DNA of 64,000 nucleotides from Candidatus Nomurabacteria bacterium. GTDB lineage: Bacteria > Patescibacteriota > Saccharimonadia > Saccharimonadales > CAIOMD01. Position numbers and translations under genes: made by a program. The stretch spans positions 106,973 through 170,972 of the forward strand of contig JACKGO010000003.1 in NCBI GenBank assembly GCA_020631975.1, read 5' to 3'. The notes under the pieces are model-generated. The model ran no database searches. It was given only the letters and a program-made list of their open reading frames with translations, and was not told the origin of the DNA. Of this stretch, positions 3,220 through 52,360 are shown one piece after another (the first letter of the stretch is position 1; each line of letters starts with the position of its first letter).

Positions 3220-4521
3220 TTAGTCGCTGTCTTGTAAAGCTTCTACACCAGGGAGAGTATGCCCAGCCATGAGCTCTAAGCTCGCTCCACCACCTGTAGA
3301 TACGTGTCCAAGTTGCTCGCGTAATCCACTTATAGATTCTACATAGCCTACCGTATCACCGCCTCCTACAATGGTAAATGGTACGTTTTTGTCACCAGCA
3401 TGTTGGCCAATGAAGCCTTCTGTGATTACGCGCGTCCCGTGGCTAAACGGGTCAGCTGCGCCGTGTAAGCCACGAATCTCTGTCATGCCAGCTGTGCCAT
3501 TCCATATAGCAGTGTGCGCTTGCGATAGCGCACCTTTTATTGCACTCGCTGTCATTGGGCCTATGTCTAAAATCCATTCATCAGCCGCAACGCTGTAGGC
3601 ATGTTTTGAAGGTTTTTTCGGATACTGTGAAATATCTGCCCATGTATGATTATCTATATCAACAACCCTGGTTTGGTGGGTATTTTCTTTTCCTTTTGCC
3701 ACAACAACGTCTTGGGGTATATAAAACGTAAAGCGCTCTTTTTTCATTCTACTATATGCTTTTTGCAGGAGTTCTTTGGCGGTATGCACAGCGTCTTTTT
3801 CTACCAAACTACTACCAACGGCTACATCTTCTGCGACTAAAAAGGTATTCGCCATGGCACCAACAACCGCTATATAATCTGCTGAATCTATAAATGTGTT
3901 TAACAAATCTATTTTGTCGGATATTTTTGCGCCACCAATCACAATGGCCAGTGGCTTTTTGGGTGTATGCATTGCATTGGTTATTGTGTCTACTTCTTTT
4001 GCCAGTAGTAATCCTGCAACGCTCGGCAGATACCGAGTAATAGCATCTGTGCTAGCATGAGCACGATGCACAACACCAAAGCCTTCTTGTACAAATACAT
4101 CACAACCTTTGGCGAGCTTTTTAGCAAAGTCAGGGTCGTTTGCTTCCTCTTCTGGGTAGTAACGTAGGTTTTCTAGTAGTAAAACATCACCCGGTTGTAG
4201 CTCTTTAATTTTGTGTTTTGCGTCTGCGCTAATACAATCATCAGCAAAGAGCACTGTGGTGTGCAATAAATCATCAAGACGATGAGCAATAGGCGCAAGG
4301 CTGCAGGCAACGTCTTGTTTACTAGTCGGCCTTCCAAGATGAGAAATCAGCACCACCTTGGCGCCAGAGCTCCGTAGGTGCTCTATAGTGGGCAAAGCTT
4401 TACGAATTCGATAATCGTCTGTAATAACACCTAGATCATTGATGGGCACATTAAAATCAACCCGAACAAGCACTGTTTTGTTGGCTACATCTGTTTGAAA
4501 TATAGTTTTTTTGCGAAACAT
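3220..4521 (-). CDS. pgk: Phosphoglycerate kinase
   Basis: VLVRVDFNVP, SHLGRP and GGGDT motifs. At 433 aa it is somewhat longer than typical, with an apparent internal insertion. Confidence 0.95.
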   Translation of the reverse strand: MFRKKTIFQTDVANKTVLVRVDFNVPINDLGVITDDYRIRKALPTIEHLRSSGAKVVLISHLGRPTSKQDVACSLAPIAHRLDDLLHTTVLFADDCISADAKHKIKELQPGDVLLLENLRYYPEEEANDPDFAKKLAKGCDVFVQEGFGVVHRAHASTDAITRYLPSVAGLLLAKEVDTITNAMHTPKKPLAIVIGGAKISDKIDLLNTFIDSADYIAVVGAMANTFLVAEDVAVGSSLVEKDAVHTAKELLQKAYSRMKKERFTFYIPQDVVVAKGKENTHQTRVVDIDNHTWADISQYPKKPSKHAYSVAADEWILDIGPMTASAIKGALSQAHTAIWNGTAGMTEIRGLHGAADPFSHGTRVITEGFIGQHAGDKNVPFTIVGGGDTVGYVESISGLREQLGHVSTGGGASLELMAGHTLPGVEALQDSD

Positions 4522-4542
4522 TGCCCACCTTAACCTTTCTTT

Positions 4543-8469: not shown

Positions 8470-9081
8470 ATGGATACACACATACAAACAATCAAAACAT
8501 GGCTCGGTACAGGATCAATAAACATCTTTGGCTTGCCATTTGCGGGTAAAGATACTCAGGGTCGTCTTTTTGCAAACTACTTAGAGGGGGTGCTTATATC
8601 TGGTGGCGATATACTCCGTAAGAGTCAAAGTAACCTAGAGCTACAACGCATTATGGCAGCTGGCGAGATTATTCCTACCAGTTTATGGGAAGAGATTGTT
8701 GTGCCATTTTTAGCAAACCCTGAATTTGCACAAAAACCGCTTATTTTAAGTGAAGTTGGGCGGTTACAGGGCGAAGAACGCATCGTAGAAAAGGCAACCT
8801 TAGCGACAGGTCACCCGCAAAAAGCCGTTATTTTACTCCAGCTGACCGACCAAGAGGTATGGAACAGATTTGATGCTGCCCAACAAGAGGGTGATCGAGG
8901 TGAGCGTGCAGATGATCGTCGTGACGTTATACAAACCCGTTTAGATAGTTATCACCATAAAGTGATGCCCGTTATAGAGCATTACCGTTCTAATGGATTG
9001 CTCATAGAAGTAGACGGTGCACAATCTCGCCAAGATGTCACAGAGCAAATTATTACAAGTTTAGTCGCACGAGCTACGTAG
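8470..9081 (+). CDS. Adenylate kinase-family nucleoside monophosphate kinase, divergent
   Basis: GLPFAGKDTQG P-loop-like segment and ISGGDILR / MAAGEIIP, arranged as in adenylate kinases. The P-loop is atypical (GK followed by D). Confidence 0.6.
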   Translation: MDTHIQTIKTWLGTGSINIFGLPFAGKDTQGRLFANYLEGVLISGGDILRKSQSNLELQRIMAAGEIIPTSLWEEIVVPFLANPEFAQKPLILSEVGRLQGEERIVEKATLATGHPQKAVILLQLTDQEVWNRFDAAQQEGDRGERADDRRDVIQTRLDSYHHKVMPVIEHYRSNGLLIEVDGAQSRQDVTEQIITSLVARAT

Positions 9082-10753
9082 TCGTAGGGCTACTATTGGC
9101 GGGTACTTTTTCTTCTACAACGTGGGTAGTTTTGTGTGTCATGTGGCCGTTTTTATCGACATCATAAACAAGAATGGTGTTAAATATCATTTCAACTTTT
9201 TCTATGTCTTCATCACTAATAGATTCAATGTATTTAATGAGCGCCCGAATACCGTTACCATGAGACACAATTAATATATTTTTGCCAGCAAGTAGCTGCG
9301 GTAGAATAGTTTTTTTATAAAATGCAACAACTCGTTTGTAGACATCCTTGAGCGTTTCGCCATTTGGTACAGGTTCATCCCAACCACGCCTAATGCGCTG
9401 AAACTTTTCTTCACCAATTAAATCACGAACTTCCCACTTATTTTTGCCAGTATAGTCACCATAATCACGCTCGTTAAGTGCAGCTTCTCTTTCATATTCT
9501 AAATCTAACTGCCCAGAAGCGTTTAATATACCTTCTATTGTTTCTAGCGTGCGTATCTGTTGCGAACAATACGCTTTGTCAAATGTCAGGTTTTGTATAG
9601 CTACCTCTTGGCCTAAGTAGCCAGCATCACGAAAGCCTTTACCACTTAAGTGTACGTCGGTAATTCCTGTCCACTGACCAGTTGCATTCCATTCTGATTC
9701 AGTATGTCGCACGATAGTTAGTTTTCCTGTTTGTTTCGCAGGCGGCTTAACAACATTCGGTGTATCGCCATACCAAAATTTGATGATATTTTCGCAGGTA
9801 ACAGCATTGATTCTACCGACTGCTTCTAGTGTGTTAAACGCATTGTGGGGGGTAAGAATAACATTTTCCATATGGCTAAGTGCTAGTATTTCTACACCGT
9901 ACTTAAGCATGTCAGAGCCAACTACATTGCTACGATAGAGCAACTCAACGTCGTCATCTACGTGTATTAAACGTTCACCTTCAACTACATCCAAGGCTGC
10001 GCCAGCAATTTTCTTTTTAGACAAGACCTCAAGGAGTGCTTTTGTATCTATAAGTTCACCTCTTGCGGTATTTATTAAAACCGCAGTTGGTTTCATACGG
10101 GCTAATTGATCCGAACCAATAAGATGTTTATTAGATGGAAAATAAGGTGCATGAATCGTTATAGCATCACTTTGTGACATAACTTCGTCTAGTGTAAGAT
10201 ACTGAAAGCCGAGTTCTTTGGCTGCATCTTTATTGGGATACGGATCATACGCAACCACATTCATACCAAACCCGTTCGCTATTTTTATTGACGATCTGCC
10301 GATGTGCCCCGTCCCAATAACCCCAAGTGTTCGTCCGTGTAAATCCCAACCGCATAGTTTATCTAACGGAGTATTGTCTTGGAACGATTTTAGCGTAGCG
10401 ACAAGCTTTCTCGATAGTGCCAGCAACAATGTAAACGCATATTCAGCAACGGTTTCTTCGCCGTAGGTAGGAACGTTTTCTACTATAATATTTCTCTCTT
10501 CGGCAGCGTTCATGTTGATATTGTTATAGCCTGTAGAACGACATGCAATTAAGCGCAACTTTGGTAGTGCCTGTATTATTTCTGCCGTCACCGAACTGGT
10601 TATAAATACAGATATAACTTCTGTTTCTGGGTCTAGGTTTTCTAGTGATATTGGTTCATCAACGAATTCCCAATGATGATCCGTGCCTATAAGCCCATTG
10701 GTTAGTTGTTGTTTATCTATTTCTGTTGAGTCATAAAAATATATTCGTGCCAT
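9074..10753 (-). CDS. Fusion protein: D-isomer-specific 2-hydroxyacid dehydrogenase (D-LDH/PGDH-like) N-terminal half plus 2,3-BPG-dependent phosphoglycerate mutase C-terminal half
   Basis: N-terminal half has GVIGTGHIGR, INTARG and TPH motifs. C-terminal half has RHTESEWN, RRGWD and VSHGNGIRAL (dPGM). The start was moved from 10933 to the internal ATG at 10753 (MARIYFYD) because the longer ORF overlaps the divergent eno start at 10803. Confidence 0.8.
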   Translation of the reverse strand: MARIYFYDSTEIDKQQLTNGLIGTDHHWEFVDEPISLENLDPETEVISVFITSSVTAEIIQALPKLRLIACRSTGYNNINMNAAEERNIIVENVPTYGEETVAEYAFTLLLALSRKLVATLKSFQDNTPLDKLCGWDLHGRTLGVIGTGHIGRSSIKIANGFGMNVVAYDPYPNKDAAKELGFQYLTLDEVMSQSDAITIHAPYFPSNKHLIGSDQLARMKPTAVLINTARGELIDTKALLEVLSKKKIAGAALDVVEGERLIHVDDDVELLYRSNVVGSDMLKYGVEILALSHMENVILTPHNAFNTLEAVGRINAVTCENIIKFWYGDTPNVVKPPAKQTGKLTIVRHTESEWNATGQWTGITDVHLSGKGFRDAGYLGQEVAIQNLTFDKAYCSQQIRTLETIEGILNASGQLDLEYEREAALNERDYGDYTGKNKWEVRDLIGEEKFQRIRRGWDEPVPNGETLKDVYKRVVAFYKKTILPQLLAGKNILIVSHGNGIRALIKYIESISDEDIEKVEMIFNTILVYDVDKNGHMTHKTTHVVEEKVPANSSPTTT

Positions 10754-10802
10754 TACGTATACTATTATGGCATAAGCATGAGCTTTATGAGAACATATTG
10801 GT

Positions 10803-12074
10803 ATGGAAATTATAAATATTATTGCCCGCCAAATATTAGATTCACGTGGTGTCCCTACTGTAGAAGCAGACGTTTTACTCGCAAATGGCTCAAGCGGTAG
10901 AGCAGCCGTGCCATCTGGTGCATCTACCGGCATACACGAAGCACATGAACTAAGAGATGGCGAAGCGGCTTATCATGGTCAATCTGTATATAAAGCTGTA
11001 GACAATATTCACACACATATATTGCCAGCCTTGCGCGGTATTCCGGCTGACGATCAGTTCAAAATAGATCAAATTATGATTGATCTAGACGGCACGCCAA
11101 ATAAGGCACAGCTCGGCGCAAACGCCATATTGGCTGTATCTTTAGCTGTAGCTCACGCTGCAGCAAAATCTCGTGGAATATTGTTGTATAAGCACATTGC
11201 CGATATTGCGCAACCACAGCAGCTATTGTTACCTATGCCAATGTTAAACGTGCTTAACGGCGGTAAACATGCAAATGGTTCTACAGATATCCAAGAGTCA
11301 ATGATAATGCCCCTAAGCGCCCACACGTTTAGCCAGGCGTTGCAAATGAGTGTAGAAATATTTCAAGAGCTCAAAATGCTTATTCACAGCAAAGGCTATG
11401 CAACTACTGTTGGTGACGAAGGTGGTTTTGCCCCACATCTTAAAAATGGTAACGCCGAAGCATTTGATTTACTATCAGAAGCTACAGATAAAGCTGGGTA
11501 CACCCCAGGGCAAGACGTGGCCTTTGCGGTAGATGTGGCAGCAAGCGAGCTGTACAAAGATGGTTCATATCATTTTACGTCAGAACGTAAACATTTTAAT
11601 ACTCAAGATCTAATTGAATGGTTTAAGCGTGTAGTAAGTCAATACCCTATTGTATCTATAGAAGACGGTTTGGCAGAAGACGATTGGGACGGCTGGAAGC
11701 ACCTTAAAGTGGCACTACCAACCACACAGCTGGTTGGTGATGATTTGTTAGTAACAAACACCGAACGCCTGCAATACGCTATACAAGAAGACGCTGCGAA
11801 TGCCATTTTAATAAAACCAAACCAAATAGGTACGCTTACAGAAACAATTCGGGCAATTCAAATGGCAAAAGAAAACGGCTGGAACACAATAGTGTCGCAC
11901 CGCTCGGGTGAAACAGAAGACGTATCTATTGTACATATTGCCATTGGCACTGGTGCCGGGCAAATTAAAACAGGGAGCCTTTCGCGCAGTGAACGTGTCG
12001 CCAAATATAACGAATTACTCCGCCTAGAGGCCATAGATAGTTCGTTGCTATTGCAAAATCCTTTTACCTCTTAA
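10803..12074 (+). CDS. eno: Enolase
   Basis: ILDSRG, SGASTG, IEDGLAEDDW and SHRSGETED motifs. Confidence 0.97.
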   Translation: MEIINIIARQILDSRGVPTVEADVLLANGSSGRAAVPSGASTGIHEAHELRDGEAAYHGQSVYKAVDNIHTHILPALRGIPADDQFKIDQIMIDLDGTPNKAQLGANAILAVSLAVAHAAAKSRGILLYKHIADIAQPQQLLLPMPMLNVLNGGKHANGSTDIQESMIMPLSAHTFSQALQMSVEIFQELKMLIHSKGYATTVGDEGGFAPHLKNGNAEAFDLLSEATDKAGYTPGQDVAFAVDVAASELYKDGSYHFTSERKHFNTQDLIEWFKRVVSQYPIVSIEDGLAEDDWDGWKHLKVALPTTQLVGDDLLVTNTERLQYAIQEDAANAILIKPNQIGTLTETIRAIQMAKENGWNTIVSHRSGETEDVSIVHIAIGTGAGQIKTGSLSRSERVAKYNELLRLEAIDSSLLLQNPFTS

Positions 12075-12557: not shown

Positions 12558-12841
12558 ACAGCTATAGCCTACGCTTTATTTTTGGTTAGTTGTTAGTTTA
12601 CAGTGGTGATGTGTTGTCACACCATCGTATGCATATAAGTATATGCTTATGGTTTAGCACAGTCAATATGAAATTGCTCTTTTGTATAATATGTATTTTC
12701 GCATTGCAAATAGCATTTTAATAATTACTAAAATGTTTAGTAATTTTGTAGACAACATACCCCTGTTATGGTACTATTGACTAGCTTATTTATGCGCATA
12801 CTGGCTGGTTCATCCAGATTTTTATGTCACACATATAGCGC

Positions 12842-12858
12842 GGTCCCGTCGTCTAACG
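12842..12858 (+). repeat. Perfect copy of tRNA-Glu positions 1-17 (acceptor 5' strand to D-loop)
   Basis: GGTCCCGTCGTCTAACG is identical to 13037-13053. Confidence 0.9.
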
Positions 12859-13036
12859 TGAGAGTAGCCAGTAGGCTGCTCGCAAGAAAACCTTCCGATG
12901 AAAACTTGTTTTCAGTAGCGAAGTTTTGAGGCCACAGGATGTGGCAGGACATCAGTTTGCAAAGATGTTGTGACGGGCTCGCTAAAAGTGAGTCGATTCA
13001 GAATCGAACCCAGCTGCAGTATAATTAAGCTTACAT
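12859..13036 (+). other. Hairpin-rich non-coding segment (family member A5) between the tRNA-Glu 5' fragment and the intact tRNA-Glu; candidate structured RNA or miniature integrated element
   Basis: Hairpins: GTAGCC-AGTA-GGCTGC, TGAAAAC-TT-GTTTTCA (12899-12914), GCCAC-AGGAT-GTGGC, and GGCTCGC-TAAAA-GTGAGTC. About 33/41 nt match 28686-28726. GGGCTCGC..AGTGAGTCGA is shared with 51118-51140. It contains AGGACATCAG (12946-12955), which equals tRNA-Glu positions 21-30. It ends with TATAAT at 13020-13025. Confidence 0.6.
13020..13025 (+). promoter_or_regulatory. Candidate -10 box (TATAAT) for tRNA-Glu
   Basis: A consensus TATAAT lies 11 nt upstream of tRNA position 1. The same arrangement is seen upstream of tRNA-Lys, tRNA-Arg(TCG) and tRNA-His. 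Confidence 0.4.
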
Positions 13037-13111
13037 GGTCCCGTCGTCTAACGGTTAGGACATCAGGTTTTCATCCTGGAAACAGGGGTTCGATTCCCCT
13101 CGGGATCACCA
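13037..13111 (+). tRNA. tRNA-Glu (anticodon TTC), CCA encoded
   Basis: Manual cloverleaf: acceptor GGTCCCG/CGGGATC, D-stem GTCT/GGAC, anticodon stem TCAGG/CCTGG, loop TTTTCAT, T-arm AGGGG-TTCGATT-CCCCT. 75 nt. Confidence 0.93.
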
Positions 13112-13180
13112 ATAAAAATACCTCAGCTAGTCTGGGTGTTTTTATTGGTTGGTTGTCAACGGCAACCGGACACCTGTAAA

Positions 13181-13234
13181 GGGTTCAGATAATCCCCCTA
13201 AGCAAAGCGACAAACGGGCGGATTATACCCTAGT
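13181..13234 (+). other. Conserved junction module preceding the duplicated tRNA-Glu 3' end
   Basis: GGGTTCAGATAAT is followed by a long hairpin (ATAATCCCCC ... GGGCGGATTAT). The same 13-mer plus an equivalent hairpin (ATAATTT ... AAATTAT) sits before the duplicated tRNA-Arg 3' end at 50753-50790. Confidence 0.45.
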
Positions 13235-13254
13235 ATTCCCCTCGGGATCACCAA
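13235..13254 (+). repeat. Perfect copy of the tRNA-Glu 3' end (T-loop A58 to CCA plus 1 nt); att-type direct repeat
   Basis: ATTCCCCTCGGGATCACCAA is identical to 13093-13112. Confidence 0.9.
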
Positions 13255-13258
13255 AAGC

Positions 13259-13284
13259 GACTCACAGTATGTGGGTCTTTTTTT
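13259..13284 (+). terminator. Rho-independent terminator
   Basis: GACTCAC-AGTAT-GTGGGTC stem-loop followed by T7. Confidence 0.7.
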
Positions 13285-17981: not shown

Positions 17982-19184
17982 TCAGGTGTCAGGGTGAATG
18001 ATAAACACCGAGACGAACGACAAGGGTTGGGGGTTAAACATTCCCCCCATGCTGTCAGAAGCGGTACCTGTGAGAGTGCCGTTTCCTTCAGCCTGGGCAC
18101 GGAAGTACCCTTGGTAGCAGGTCCATCCCGTTTCACACGGTGTCACACCGTCGCGTTCGGTCGAGACCGACCGCCAATTGTAGACACCACCGAGCGAACT
18201 CGGGGAGACTACCGGAGACCCCAGGGTGACCGTTGCGCCATCGAAGGCCTTTGCTCGTCCGAAGACAGGCATCGTGCCACCAGGATCGACAGCGTGCTCG
18301 CCGAGAAAGTACTCGGCGAGCGGGTTCTGGTGAACCGGCGTCGGCGTCGGCGTCGGATTTTGTTGGCACATAGCGTAAGCATTGCCTTCCATCGCCACCT
18401 CGGCTGACGCTTTCGCATCCGCCGATGCCTTAGTGCGGTTCTGTTGCCAGTACCGCACCGCTTGCCCTTCGGCATCGATTCGTGTCGACGAACGGAAAGT
18501 GATCCGTTCGTCAAACTCGAATTTTGCACTGCCAAGTCCCGTAACCCAGGATTCGGCAATACAGCCACCGAGCTCGACATGGGCTAACGCTCGTGCTTCA
18601 ATACCGACTACACCGTAGCCGGTCACTACCCACGTTAGTACAAGCTTCCGCTTGACATGGATTTGGGAGTACCTATACTTCGGCATCCTCCTTGTAGGTT
18701 CTGGGTTCTTGCACCTGTTCACCCATTTTGACGCCTTCGGATACCCCATGTGGAAGTATTTGCACCCAGCGTTTGGGGCAAAACTCGTCCACGGGGTTGT
18801 GATGGCGTGGTTCGGGATATTGACTCGTCCCGAACTTGAGTTGTAGGTGGTAGGGTAGGTTTTACCCCGCTTGAGCCGAAACACCTTGCAGGTTTTTACA
18901 CCTGCCTGGTAGTTTTTGACAAACGGAGCTTTCCGCGCCTTACCCACCGAGAGCTTTGGAGCGGCAGGGTCGTTGACCCACCCCACCAGCAACCGACCCT
19001 TCGAGTCAGTTGTGATGGCTGTGGATGATATTACATGCACTGCGCTGTCGGCGGTTTCCTTGAAAAAAACCTCCGACTTCATGCTGACCGGGTCTTCGGC
19101 GGCGCTGGCGGAGTTCGTAATGAACCCCCCCAAGCCAATCATCACCGCCAGAGCGGCGATGAAGCTAAATATCTTCCTGATCAT
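17982..19184 (-). CDS. GC-rich secreted protein of unknown function; probable foreign origin
   Basis: Sampled 60-nt lines are about 50-65% GC against an AT-rich background. The ATG at 19184 is preceded by GAAGGAGGG and gives the signal peptide MIRKIFSFIAALAVMIGLGGFITNSASA. PTPTPTP linker. No recognisable domain. Confidence 0.75.
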   Translation of the reverse strand: MIRKIFSFIAALAVMIGLGGFITNSASAAEDPVSMKSEVFFKETADSAVHVISSTAITTDSKGRLLVGWVNDPAAPKLSVGKARKAPFVKNYQAGVKTCKVFRLKRGKTYPTTYNSSSGRVNIPNHAITTPWTSFAPNAGCKYFHMGYPKASKWVNRCKNPEPTRRMPKYRYSQIHVKRKLVLTWVVTGYGVVGIEARALAHVELGGCIAESWVTGLGSAKFEFDERITFRSSTRIDAEGQAVRYWQQNRTKASADAKASAEVAMEGNAYAMCQQNPTPTPTPVHQNPLAEYFLGEHAVDPGGTMPVFGRAKAFDGATVTLGSPVVSPSSLGGVYNWRSVSTERDGVTPCETGWTCYQGYFRAQAEGNGTLTGTASDSMGGMFNPQPLSFVSVFIIHPDT

Positions 19185-19371
19185 CGATCTGCCCTCCTTC
19201 AAGGGGTGTCTTGGCGGAACTTCCGCCACACGCCCCTTATGGGCGCGGTTTATTATTTACAGCTATCTGTGCTATACGCAATAAACCACGCCCATTAGGA
19301 GGTCATAACCTGTAGTAGTTAGTGTCATATGGGCATTCGGCCACAAGCTTAAAAATAAGCTTGGGCTGCAA

Positions 19372-28664: not shown

Positions 28665-28805
28665 GGTCTGTAGCTCAGCTGGTTACCTTGCGATAAAAAC
28701 TTGTTTTCAATCGAGAAGTTCAGGGGTCGCAGAATGTACCTTGCCTCTTCCAAGCTCCGCTCGCTATAAAGATTGAATAGCACTTTTAGATATAATAGAT
28801 ACTAT
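28665..28805 (+). other. tRNA-like 5' fragment plus hairpin-rich segment (family member B5) directly upstream of tRNA-Lys
   Basis: At 28665-28685, GGTCTGTAGCTCAGCTGGTTA; its 16 nt at 28670-28685 equal tRNA-Lys 28812-28827. At 28686-28726, CCTTGCGATAAAAACTTGTTTTCAATCGAGAAGTTCAGGGG is about 80% identical to 12891-12931. CTTGCCTCTTCCAAG resembles the tRNA-Lys anticodon arm. GCTCGCTATAAAGATTGAAT resembles 12977-13000. TATAAT at 28791-28796. Confidence 0.6.
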
Positions 28806-40741: not shown

Positions 40742-40818
40742 GCACCCGTAGCTCAGCGGATTAGAGTACTTGGCTTCGAACCAAGGGGTCGCAGGTTCGA
40801 ATCCTGCCGGGTGTACCA
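40742..40818 (+). tRNA. tRNA-Arg (anticodon TCG), CCA encoded
   Basis: Acceptor GCACCCG/CGGGTGT (G1-U72), anticodon stem CTTGG/CCAAG, loop CTTCGAA, T-arm GCAGG-TTCGAAT-CCTGC. 77 nt. TATAAT lies upstream. Confidence 0.9.
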
Positions 40819-41015
40819 CGTCTATATTTAAGGGCTTCTCTATAGAAGTCTTTTTTTTGTAACTTAGTACGTCAATTTCGACAATAGATAGAAAATACGG
40901 CTCGTATATAACTCAGCGTTTTGCTTCAAATAATTTCATGGTGATAATTTTGTACATAGCCGTTTTTCATGTTTTTATAGTTGTAATATTTTTGATTTTG
41001 TGTTATAGTAATTAT

Positions 41016-49861: not shown

Positions 49862-50658
49862 ATGAAAAGATTCGAAGCATTACTATCTGATGCTGATGGT
49901 ACATTAATCGACAGTGTTCCTCTTATTAAGCATGGGCAATACGAAACAGCTATTACTTTCTTAAAAGCACACGGCTTAGCTGATAGCGATTTACCGGATT
50001 TTCCAACATACGAAACGGCTCTAAATCAAACCGTTGGGGGTAGCGCTAGAGATACGCTGGAACGGACAGTCAGAATGCTTTATTCGGACAGAGAGCATCA
50101 TATAAATGGAGCTGATTTTGATGTTTTACATAATATGCTAAACCCTGTGCAAGATAGGATTGCACCGGGTATATAAGAGCATATCCTGGCCTACAGTTAC
50201 TTCTAAAGAATCTCGGTACACACAGTTTAAAACTTGCAATTTTTACAAGCGGAACACCGCATCATGTAGTAAGAAATATGGGTATAGCTCTGCCAGAACT
50301 TGGGCTTACCAAACTATTTAAAGATGAAACTATATCTGACCGTGAAAAACTAGTACATTTTGAAAAAGAAGTAGAAAAATATTATAGAATTCCTATTTTT
50401 ACTGTTGTAACTATAGAAGATACAAAAGAACCTAAACCAGATCCAGAAGGCTTGCAGATAGCTATGAAAAGATTGAGCGTAGAGCCAAATGATTGTGCCA
50501 TGCTTGGTGATCATAAGGCCGATATGCAAGCAGGATTTAATGCAACTGTGCCAATTAGGATTGGTATAACTCATGGCTTTGACGATAAAGAAACACTGGA
50601 AGAAGCTAAAGCTACTGAGATAGTTACTAACCTTAGCGACATAAAGTTAGAGTCCTAA
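49862..50658 (+). pseudogene. HAD-superfamily hydrolase interrupted by a frameshift
   Basis: ORF 49862-50176 carries motif I (DADGTLIDS). The frame of ORF 50278-50658 extends upstream as AYPGLQLLLKNLGTHSLKLAIFTSGT (motif II) and carries GDHKADMQAG (motif IV). The frames switch near 50165-50185. Confidence 0.7.
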
Positions 50659-50752
50659 CTTTGTATACGACAGTGTGCCATATTAAATCATTCACCTTCA
50701 TGGTGGATTTTTTAATATGACGTCGCTGAAAGCGAATTGAACCCCCCAAGGA

Positions 50753-50843
50753 GGGTTCAGATAATTTGAGTAGTTTACGAAAATTATATGATGAAACCGA
50801 ATTTGCCATTCCATAAATAAAGGCAAATCTGGCTTGAAGCTAT
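50753..50843 (+). other. Junction module preceding the duplicated tRNA-Arg 3' end
   Basis: GGGTTCAGATAAT (50753-50765) plus the hairpin ATAATTT...AAATTAT, then the hairpin TTTGCC...GGCAAA. It parallels 13181-13234. Confidence 0.45.
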
Positions 50844-50863
50844 AATCCCTCCCGGGGTGCCAA
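50844..50863 (+). repeat. Perfect copy of the tRNA-Arg(TCT) 3' end (T-loop A58 to CCA plus 1 nt); att-type direct repeat
   Basis: AATCCCTCCCGGGGTGCCAA is identical to 49259-49278. Confidence 0.9.
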
Positions 50864-50898
50864 TTTATGAAACTACCTTTTATGGTAGTTTTTTAAAT

Positions 50899-51164
50899 TG
50901 ATTCCGAGATAATTCGTACACTCGACCGTTGGTCGGGTGAAAACTGCCTGTGGCAGTTTGCAAGGCCGGAAACTGATTTAAAGCTATGCTTTAAGTAAGT
51001 TGAGGCGGGGTCGCAACCGATTGGCAGCTTGCTGTCAGTAGGATTGTGCCGAGAATTGCCGGTGGCAATTCGCAAGGAAACAAACACTTGAAAACTATGT
51101 TTTCAAAGCTGTTTTTTCGGGCTCGCCGGAAGTGAGTCGAAATTCCTGCCGGGTTACAAAGCAT
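50899..51164 (+). other. Hairpin-rich non-coding segment (family member C5) ending in a decayed tRNA-Arg 3' end
   Basis: Perfect 7-8 bp hairpins with 3-nt loops at 50941-50959, 50978-50994, 51053-51071 and 51088-51106. The unit hairpin-YGCAAGG-AAAC occurs twice. TTGAAAAC-TAT-GTTTTCAA and GGGCTCGCCGGAAGTGAGTCGA are shared with 12899-12998. GTCGAAATTCCTGCCGGGTTACA aligns to GTTCGAATCCCTCCCGGGGTGCCA. Confidence 0.6.
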
Positions 51165-51191
51165 AAGCGTTATCGTAAGATAACGTTTTTT
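51165..51191 (+). terminator. Terminator stem-loop, paralogue of 49283-49307
   Basis: AAGCGTTATC-GTAA-GATAACGTTT followed by T-run. One G-to-A change converts a wobble pair into a Watson-Crick pair. Confidence 0.6.
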
Positions 51192-51210
51192 ATTTGGTAT
51201 AATTAATTTC

Positions 51211-52131: not shown

Positions 52132-52209
52132 GGCGGATGTAGCTCAGTTGGTTAGAGCGCCTGTTTGTGGCACAGGAGGCCGTGGGTTCAATTCCCATCA
52201 TTCGCCCCA
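52132..52209 (+). tRNA. tRNA-His (anticodon GTG) with encoded G-1, CCA encoded
   Basis: G-1 plus acceptor GCGGATG/CATTCGC, discriminator C73, anticodon stem CCTGT/ACAGG, loop TTGTGGC, T-arm GTGGG-TTCAATT-CCCAT. Confidence 0.9.
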
Positions 52210-52344
52210 AGACATGAACCCCGCTATCACGAGGTTTTATTATTCGGCTCCTGCTGAGATTCCCATATAGCTTCACGCCAAGAAAAAAGATATTAACCAA
52301 GGAGTTTTCTTGGGTTCTATATATATTCTCACTAATGTTCGAAT

Positions 52345-52360
52345 ATCATTCGCCCCAAGA
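52345..52360 (+). repeat. Copy of the tRNA-His 3' end plus 3 downstream nt
   Basis: ATCATTCGCCCCAAGA is identical to 52197-52212. It is preceded by a T-loop-like GTTCGAAT and followed by its own terminator (ATCCCG-TTTTGA-CGGGAT-TTTT). Confidence 0.8.

Follow-up and report, generated by a model that had tools for sequence, protein, structure and literature searches.

Remnants of integrative elements that are flanked by att sites and lack recombination genes are described in the Streptococcus ICESt literature as cis-mobilizable elements (CIMEs); they are kilobases in size and the parent integrative and conjugative element (ICE) is known. Recombination sites that fold from single strands are found in integrons (attC) and in the CTX phage (attP(+)), and depend on IntI or XerCD. 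For islands integrated into tRNA-encoding DNA (tDNA), the Islander study defines an island as 2–200 kb long with a tyrosine integrase inside, rejects candidates shorter than 2 kb, notes that only tyrosine recombinases are known to target tRNA genes, and lists 159 islands with a displaced 5' gene fragment as against 3760 with a 3' fragment (PMC4383910). Here we analyze a 64,000 nucleotide (nt) stretch of a Candidatus Nomurabacteria bacterium genome of the Saccharimonadia (contig JACKGO010000003.1, positions 106,973 to 170,972; hereafter the window), in which an intact tRNA-Glu gene lies between displaced copies of both of its own ends. With slightly more belief than doubt, we interpret the gene as flanked by two independent miniature cassettes, non-autonomous and without an integrase, of a kind that enters tRNA genes recurrently in Saccharimonadia.

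The intact gene, tRNA-Glu(UUC) with an encoded CCA end, is located at 13037–13111; all features are on the plus strand unless stated otherwise. It was identified by ARAGORN and matches the Rfam tRNA family RF00005 with 63.1 bits at 13037–13108 (threshold 29, anticodon UUC), and no tRNA match is obtained with the outer fragments or the spacers of the locus. An exact copy of tRNA positions 1–17 is present at 12842–12858, and an exact copy of positions 58–76 plus one base at 13235–13254. In searches of the 64 kb window allowing up to two mismatches, GGTCCCGTCGTCTAACG occurs only at 12842–12858 and 13037–13053, and ATTCCCCTCGGGATCACCAA only at 13093–13112 and 13235–13254, with no matches in 100 shuffles for either. 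The repeats and the gene are separated by spacers of 178 nt (12859–13036) and 123 nt (13112–13234; 124 nt in some strains), neither of which contains an open reading frame (ORF), and repeat and spacer together make an upstream unit of 195 bp and a downstream unit of 142 bp. The initial annotation, made from the sequence alone, described this nested arrangement correctly, including its coordinates. In agreement with its reading, the 3' repeat has the layout of an integration-type scar, being downstream of the gene in the same orientation, extending from the T-loop to CCA and followed by what is probably the original terminator. The 5' repeat mirrors this arrangement, the promoter here coming from the insert; the annotation rightly called the pattern unusual, and it is known but rare (159 versus 3760; PMC4383910). 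The locus thus has an intact tRNA gene with cognate end fragments in the same orientation and on the correct sides, as Islander islands do, but lacks both a tyrosine integrase and the 2–200 kb length. Such units would be invisible to island finders, which drop candidates shorter than 2 kb or without an integrase.

Repeated tRNA ends can confuse assemblers, and the structure might come from a collapsed or chimeric tandem tRNA array; misassembly of such an array was a concern raised in the initial annotation. The same structure is present, however, in nine of ten independently assembled contigs of the species, from several projects and assemblers, and we conclude that the arrangement is not an assembly artefact; related structures in dozens of unrelated metagenomes leave this explanation a practically negligible probability.

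Both units carry transcription signals. A promoter-like sequence at 12749–12777 (TAGACA-17-TACTAT with TG), identified by its match to the consensus only, is likely the native tRNA-Glu promoter, now reading into the displaced 5' fragment. A second promoter-like sequence, TTCAGA-17-TATAAT at 12997–13025, ends 11 nt 5' of the tRNA, is supplied by the insert and would serve the intact gene, as judged from its consensus match; TATAAT is placed likewise in other upstream units. On the downstream side, a predicted hairpin and terminator at 13108–13149 begins the unit and has a stem that includes the CCA end of the gene (ACCAATAAAAATACC ... GGTGTTTTTATTGGT), and downstream units elsewhere have the same build at the CCA-end hairpin. 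A strong intrinsic terminator follows the displaced 3' fragment at 13259–13284 (hairpin 13259–13277 and then a T run), and it is probably the original terminator of the tRNA-Glu gene.

Comparison with close relatives, one of the checks proposed in the initial annotation, revealed a strain (L046; GCA_041402185.1) that lacks exactly 195 bp, corresponding to one 17-nt repeat and the 178-nt spacer, and that retains the downstream unit. In this strain the region corresponding to 12749–12777 is directly 5' of the intact tRNA-Glu, and the sequences otherwise differ by two single-base changes over about 820 aligned bases. The upstream segment is therefore a discrete block bounded by the repeat. The L046 allele has the boundaries expected of an empty site for the upstream unit, although repeat-mediated deletion would look identical; no empty allele of the downstream unit was found among ten strains.

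The upstream spacer belongs to a sequence family. A 24-nt core, CCTTSCGATRAAAACTTGTTTTCA, recurs upstream of tRNA-Lys(CUU) in the window, where chance alone would give 0 matches. Scanning metagenomes for a pattern of 19 nt gave at least 120 loci, about half of which are chance matches, and, by the pattern scan and a covariance model (R1), about 50 loci among the matches listed share an entire module of about 90 nt. The module is beside a tRNA gene or tRNA fragment on the same strand at all of these loci but one (L137), and the tRNAs represent 13 amino-acid identities. An alignment of 35 copies shows this type-1 module to be a three-hairpin fold of about 90 nt with four helices: P1, P2 enclosing P3, and P4. 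In alignment A4, 95.5% of the cells are paired compared with 85.4% in shuffles, there are 108 double-change cells compared with 29.7 (none of 500 shuffles was as high), and controls in which the partners were moved by 1–3 columns have only 28–50% paired. With diverged copies added, in an alignment that was fitted to R1 and hence leans towards the model, 96.2% of cells are paired compared with 70.6%, and compensatory changes are seen at 28 of 30 pairs. Because a G.U pair in P4 is conserved, the fold is assigned to the tRNA-sense strand.

The ends of the module are also conserved (GTGAGA ... GTGAC), and a long-type module of 111 nt shares the end motifs TGARA ... GTGMC, while an unrelated type-3 module and shorter forms occupy the same position as type 1. 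The module ends and CGAUGA were also compared with hammerhead, group II and spliceosomal-like elements; these readings were rejected, as the core motifs do not fit. No match to the module was found in Rfam 15 (E≤10 for the window region and E≤1 for nine related loci, only tRNA being matched on the units), nor was the module sequence found in the literature searched, where topic searches gave only general work on tRNA islands and group I introns. In view of the strong covariation, the lack of an Rfam entry and the lack of a match in that literature, the module can be put forward as a candidate new motif of RNA or single-stranded DNA. A neighboring ABC ATPase has its nearest matches in proteins of Candidatus Saccharimonadales metagenome-assembled genomes (71% identity at best), and these closest species have neither synteny nor the module.

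Across loci, the units have two forms. Upstream units begin with the native promoter and a 5' copy of the tRNA, which reaches the T-stem or is shorter; module, a few bases of the T-loop, inverted T-arm, TATAAT promoter and intact tRNA follow in that order. Downstream units are ordered as intact tRNA, CCA-end hairpin, inverted T-arm, tRNA positions ~45–53, module, positions ~55–76 with CCA, and terminator. Upstream units thereby supply a promoter and a new 5' end to the gene, and downstream units a terminator and a new 3' end. The part order of both forms places the module within the T-loop of an incomplete copy of the tRNA; in most units it is situated between T54 and C56 of that copy, and less often in the D-arm. 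Some modules lie in a D-loop or D-stem, and some are inserted into another module, within its P4 hairpin. The displaced fragments are about 90–330 nt from the gene, a narrow range across dozens of loci.

The inverted T-arm was evaluated directly, using an inverted 12-mer of tRNA positions 49–60 in place of an uninformative 10-nt pairing test. It is present at 9 or more of 12 matches in 20 of 32 units, ten of which have p≤0.01, and it is absent from units with the module in the D-arm. In T-loop-insertion units the inverted copy is usually positioned between the module and the intact gene, where it is able to pair with both module flanks, and the predicted fold of a full unit is a multi-branch junction with just this pairing (z = -5.9). 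Upstream and downstream units contain the same parts in circularly permuted order, namely the 5' strand of the T-stem, the module, the 3' part of the T-loop and the inverted T-arm.

The 178-nt Glu spacer was parsed by alignment with a tRNA-Glu unit of another genus (L107) and a tRNA-Gln unit (L069). A first module (module A; 12859–12945) is supported by covariation and scores 93 bits with R1 at 12857–12949, with P1 at 12862–12881, P2/P3 at 12887–12928 and P4 at 12931–12945; it occupies the former D-loop site of an old tRNA-Glu copy, and L107 and L069 contain homologous units. It is followed by AGGACATCAG (12946–12955), a relic of tRNA-Glu positions 21–30 recovered in a direct-repeat search, at a place occupied in L107 and L069 by tRNA positions 20–53. 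Next comes what is left of a second module (module B), namely its 3' half (12956–12994), recognized by alignment to the same two units and comprising a P3 remnant and P4 (GGCTCGC TAAAA GTGAGTC), about 72 nt having been deleted internally relative to L107 and L069. A T-loop piece (GATTC, positions 57–61), one A and the inverted T-arm copy GAATCGAACCC complete the series at 12995–13011, as found by repeat search. GAATCGAACCC, at 13001–13011, is a perfect reverse complement (11/11) of the T-arm of tRNA-Glu itself (13086–13096), and the unit matches the inverted 12-mer at 10 of 12 positions, which none of 300 shuffles equaled. The initial annotation had noticed both AGGACATCAG and a T-arm-like stretch, and the alignment indicates that both are true relics and not chance; the stretch that it treated as one, GAGTCGATTC, is instead made of three things, namely the 3' strand of a module hairpin, GATTC (T-loop 57–61) and GAATCGAACCC. 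On this sequence comparison, the upstream Glu unit is a partly deleted member of the family. For the rest of the downstream unit (13150–13234), repeat searches gave a degenerate inverted T-arm at 13163–13177 and a T-arm-like direct copy, AGGGTTCAGATAAT, at 13180–13193, and R1 finds no type-1 module there. The same 14-mer is present at 50752–50765, inside another unit.

At related loci, 5' and 3' repeats are found together no more often than independence predicts. For tRNAs of the loci retrieved that have enough flank on both sides, 13 have a 5' repeat only, 16 a 3' repeat only, seven have both and 22 neither, and the seven with both compare with about eight expected under independence. The idea of one element in which two terminal modules enclose a whole tRNA gene was rejected for this reason, and because the two ends often differ in module type.

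The same observation bears on a proposal in the initial annotation that a 412-nt transcript could fold as a giant tRNA-like RNA, in which the outer fragments of a single transcript (12842–13254) form an acceptor stem and the real tRNA lies inside. The outer fragments are indeed exactly complementary acceptor-stem halves, the outer 7 bp do close the minimum-energy fold of the 413 nt, and the tRNA-Glu of another species (L107) is likewise flanked on both sides. However, this fold breaks both the cloverleaf and the covariation-supported module helices, L046 lacks the upstream half only, a terminator-like hairpin is placed between the tRNA and the downstream spacer, and in a partly decayed tRNA-Lys unit position 1 of the 5' fragment is mutated. 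Together with the independence of the 5' and 3' repeats, these findings contradict the proposal, and we regard a giant RNA as highly improbable. The mispairing in the 413-nt fold arises from complementarity between the P3 5' strand (GAUGAAAAC, 12897–12913) and the anticodon loop and stem sequence of tRNA-Glu(UUC) (GUUUUCAUC, 13059–13075). That complementarity is itself probably a coincidence, since P3 keeps its sequence whatever the type of the adjacent tRNA.

Modules are inserted after G18 in the D-loop and after T54 in the T-loop, two points that meet at the elbow of the tRNA in three dimensions. Together with the conserved module ends, this might suggest an intron-like insertion: a self-spliced or protein-spliced intron, or an insertion at the RNA level into tRNA loops that was fixed by reverse transcription. 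Group I introns do occur in tRNA genes and in the T-loop of tmRNA, including in Patescibacteria (PMC13011429). The module resembles these in being a structured RNA in a tRNA loop in the same phylum, but differs in having no group I core, a length of about 90 nt, interrupted copies that are never complete and an intact copy adjoining. In no instance did we see an interrupted copy with both exons complete, and joining the flanks gives a T-loop that is 1–3 nt short. In addition, there is no match to group I, group II or any ribozyme family in Rfam (at the thresholds given above), and no reverse transcriptase is found among the 49 ORFs of the window or recurs near 43 units. An intron-like origin is consequently very unlikely. 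A split or permuted tRNA does not describe the locus, as an intact gene of the same sequence lies between the fragments.

Strain comparisons show that units are gained or lost as whole blocks over the duplicated part of the tRNA. All four strain-level differences examined within the species map to units or begin at a tRNA 3' end: the 195-bp Glu unit, a 182-bp unit bounded by fragments of the tRNA-Arg 3' end, a 111-nt module that comes with a re-made inverted T-arm, and a full replacement of the flank downstream of tRNA-Lys. In the last, two strains (L187 and L189) match the window up to the CCA end of tRNA-Lys, after which the sequence is wholly different; the region of the terminator, CsoR and a copper ATPase is replaced by a downstream unit with a type-3 module, two 3' fragments, and genes for a PNPOx-family protein and a methyltransferase. 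Because the flank is exchanged right after CCA, the copper-resistance genes (the CsoR-like repressor and the copper ATPase) may have been brought in at tRNA-Lys. In the window's Lys unit, the displaced 5' fragment (A)GGTCTG has its pairing partner in CAGACC(C), from the 3' fragments of L187 and L189, and not in the resident GGGCCAG/CTGGCCC. As these outer Lys fragments are complementary to each other and not to the resident gene, they are the two ends of an older tRNA-Lys allele. By comparison with this locus, the outer halves at tRNA-Glu are most likely relics, at the DNA level, of an older gene copy.

Related loci extend this picture. Metagenomic loci that share genes with the window do so at 73% identity for RNase Y, 53–55% for FolD and 60% for pyruvate kinase, and where FolD is beside tRNA-Lys(CUU) the related loci have a downstream unit and the window has an upstream unit. 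Units pile up in tandem or nested at a single tRNA, and genes can lie between them. One tRNA-Leu(CAG) locus (L157) has both an upstream and a downstream unit and, about 1 kb further on, an RHH-ParE pair and then a second downstream unit. The pair, an RHH antitoxin and a ParE toxin at positions 4049–4526 of that locus, is located between the two downstream units.

These arrays resemble those of ordinary islands, and the units could be scars of integrase-bearing islands or prophages that entered the 3' and 5' parts of tRNA genes and were later deleted to about 0.1–0.2 kb, the conserved sequences being island ends. Fragment orientation and placement are the classical tDNA island signature (PMC4383910), genes are present between the units of L157, and the flank downstream of tRNA-Lys has been replaced between strains. 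Two large serine recombinase genes (L169 7395–9097 and L069 12905–13808) converge on tRNA-Lys(UUU) and tRNA-Gln(UUG), overlapping their 3' ends, and both tRNAs also bear upstream units; this layout would be that expected of an integrase beside its att site. On the other hand, the units vary little in size over dozens of loci, integrase remnants are not seen in or near the units, modules occur within modules and in D-arms, and compensatory evolution of the module across lineages is not expected of neutral debris. Scans of viral contigs with the two junctions, the module core, the P1–P2 linker and the type-3 core gave nothing, or chance matches without a tRNA or an R1 match, and neither the unit nor the module has a BLAST match among phage and plasmid records; the module was thus not found on viral contigs or in those records. 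We therefore think it unlikely that the units are simply reduced islands.

A search for a partner enzyme gave little. Among the 49 ORFs of the window, Pfam detects no integrase, transposase or reverse transcriptase (RecA, RecX and common housekeeping genes are found, and 10 of the 49 have no match), in agreement with the initial annotation that no recognizable recombinase gene is present. Clustering of ORFs shows no protein family recurring near 43 units, and the large serine recombinase at two loci is the sole lead. Bridge-RNA systems of the IS110 type, with a DEDD recombinase beside a guide RNA, are not matched either, as the units have no ORF and no recurrent neighbor protein. Circular contigs carrying the module were not found.

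We also considered that the units are host non-coding RNA genes, in which module-bearing pseudo-tRNAs are functional, are expressed from the tRNA promoter or by read-through, and are perhaps processed from the inverted-T-arm stem. The strong covariation and the conserved sense-strand G.U pair would be explained in this way, as would the position of upstream units directly behind a native tRNA promoter and the two-module layout that is kept, with compensatory changes, in tRNA-Glu units of two genera. It is more difficult to account for units that are present in one and absent from another of two near-identical strains with no other change, for downstream units placed behind terminators, for the many copies that are truncated, internally deleted or nested (including the Glu and Lys copies in the window), and for at least three unrelated module types at the same position. 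A host RNA function is thus rather unlikely in our estimation.

Returning to the interpretation that two independent cassettes flank tRNA-Glu, we propose that each cassette would displace one end of the gene and bring a replacement end together with a promoter or terminator, leaving the gene intact. The module and the inverted T-arm would form a recombination site that is folded on the tRNA-sense strand, and a trans-acting enzyme would recombine the cassettes with tRNA genes, at the T-loop. By pairing with the flanks on either side of the module, the inverted copy would rebuild a T-arm-like duplex, from which the module would protrude as a side branch. The two circularly permuted forms are as expected if a small circle recombined with the T-loop with the crossover on either side of the module. 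Recombination between the repeats could then remove a unit, as in L046. We place the units with tRNA-gene-integrating elements, with the new traits of small size, no integrase, a structured module and an inverted T-arm. A bolder proposal, which we put forward tentatively and doubt more than we believe, is that they represent an undescribed class of non-autonomous, protein-free element specialized for tRNA genes, in which the module, as RNA or single-stranded DNA, is guided by the inverted T-arm, inserts at the elbow loops (T-loop and D-loop), and spreads via duplication of the displaced gene end.

Several considerations weigh against the cassette interpretation. Both the trans-acting enzyme and the role of the module and inverted T-arm as a recombination site are things that we purely infer, and no recombinase, circular intermediate or excision junction was found. 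Module junctions are imprecise, with 2–4 nt of the target replaced, unlike classical site-specific recombination. In a crude ungapped 10-nt test, pairing of the T-stem 5' strand with the flanks does not exceed that in shuffles (8.07 compared with 7.71). The L046 allele could be a simple deletion between the 17-nt repeats and not an empty site, and active mobility is therefore not proven. Structural conservation is strong, also between tRNA-Glu units that have diverged in two genera, and a functional RNA would account for it no less well than a recombination site. Judged on sequence, the 123-nt downstream spacer has the outline of a downstream unit, in a parse weaker than that of the upstream unit. 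Finally, the member set is biased by the search pattern, which was seeded on one conserved hairpin, so that the family is under-sampled, and its taxonomic range rests on few loci that share genes with the window.

Comparisons with described systems help to place the units. Like tDNA islands, they have an intact tRNA and a displaced end fragment, restore the gene, occur in 3' and rarer 5' versions, form tandem arrays and can have genes between them, but they are 0.1–0.2 kb long, have no integrase, have a structured module at the junction of the displaced fragment and an inverted T-arm, and replace 2–4 nt. They share with CIMEs the att-type repeat bounds, the lack of an integrase and the potential, in principle, for mobilization by a tandem helper, but they have no known parent element and have a dedicated structured module in common. 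As with attC and attP(+), structure is kept over sequence, the fold is strand-specific, an inverted core repeat is close to the junction and cassettes accrete; however, the insert would be a side branch on one strand and not a hairpin apex, and the target is the T-loop of a tRNA. Miniature inverted-repeat transposable elements (MITEs) are similarly small, non-coding, multi-copy, patchy between strains and nested, but the units are associated with tRNAs, duplicate part of the target gene and have neither terminal inverted repeats nor a target-site duplication, since their ends (TGAGA ... GTGAC) are not inverted and the target loses 2–4 nt.

Saccharibacteria have genomes of about 1 Mb that are thought to be poor in mobile elements, and gene exchange in these organisms is poorly understood. 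If the bolder proposal is correct, tRNA genes would be the cassette-exchange platform of these reduced genomes, and should the units amount to a recombination system, the lineage would gain and lose genes mainly at its tRNA genes.

Units are present at three of the eight tRNA genes in the window, and a fourth array, on tRNA-Arg fragments, is located 1.4 kb downstream of tRNA-Arg(UCU). The upstream unit before tRNA-Lys(CUU) (28665–28805; R1, 30 bits) consists of a displaced 5' fragment, (A)GGTCTGTAGCTCAGCTGGTTA, which is from another tRNA-Lys allele, a module without P1, and a TATAAT promoter. The array downstream of tRNA-Arg(UCU) (50671–51200) was identified with R1 and by strain comparison and contains downstream-type units on tRNA-Arg(UCU) 3' fragments. 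Its first unit, of 182 nt (50671–50852), is in only some strains, and is followed by an inverted T-arm, the T-stem 5' strand GGTCGGG, a 111-nt long-type module (50936–51047), a type-1 module (51048–51140), TCGAAATTCCTGCCGGGTTACAA and a terminator. Genes for a NUDIX and a HAD hydrolase are positioned between the intact tRNA-Arg gene and this array. The HAD-family hydrolase is intact, with 265 amino acids (aa), in six other strains, and the copy in the window is split (49862–50176 and 50278–50658) as the result of a frameshift or sequencing error.

A downstream-type unit at tRNA-His (52194–52358) was found by repeat search. The 16-nt ATCATTCGCCCCAAGA at the 3' end of the gene (52194–52209) recurs at 52343–52358, 134 nt downstream of the gene, with a strong terminator next to it; the spacer contains a hairpin of T-arm-like sequence and no type-1 module. 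Only 38 nt separate tRNA-Arg from tRNA-His in a related genome (L073), and the 2.9 kb that intervene in the window may therefore be an old insertion.

Three further observations concern other parts of the window. An ARAGORN call of tRNA-Arg(UCG) at 40761–40831 on the minus strand overlaps a real tRNA-Arg at 40742–40818; it looks like a mirror-image false call, and is likely false because Rfam supports the plus-strand gene only. A 415-aa ORF at 17982–19229 has no Pfam match and lies in the only 2-kb bin with about 51% G+C, compared with about 40% elsewhere, and it may have been acquired horizontally. Lastly, an apparent gene fusion is seen at 9074–10933, next to enolase and other glycolytic genes, where a 619-aa ORF contains 2-hydroxyacid dehydrogenase domains together with a domain of the histidine-phosphatase type (phosphoglycerate-mutase-like).

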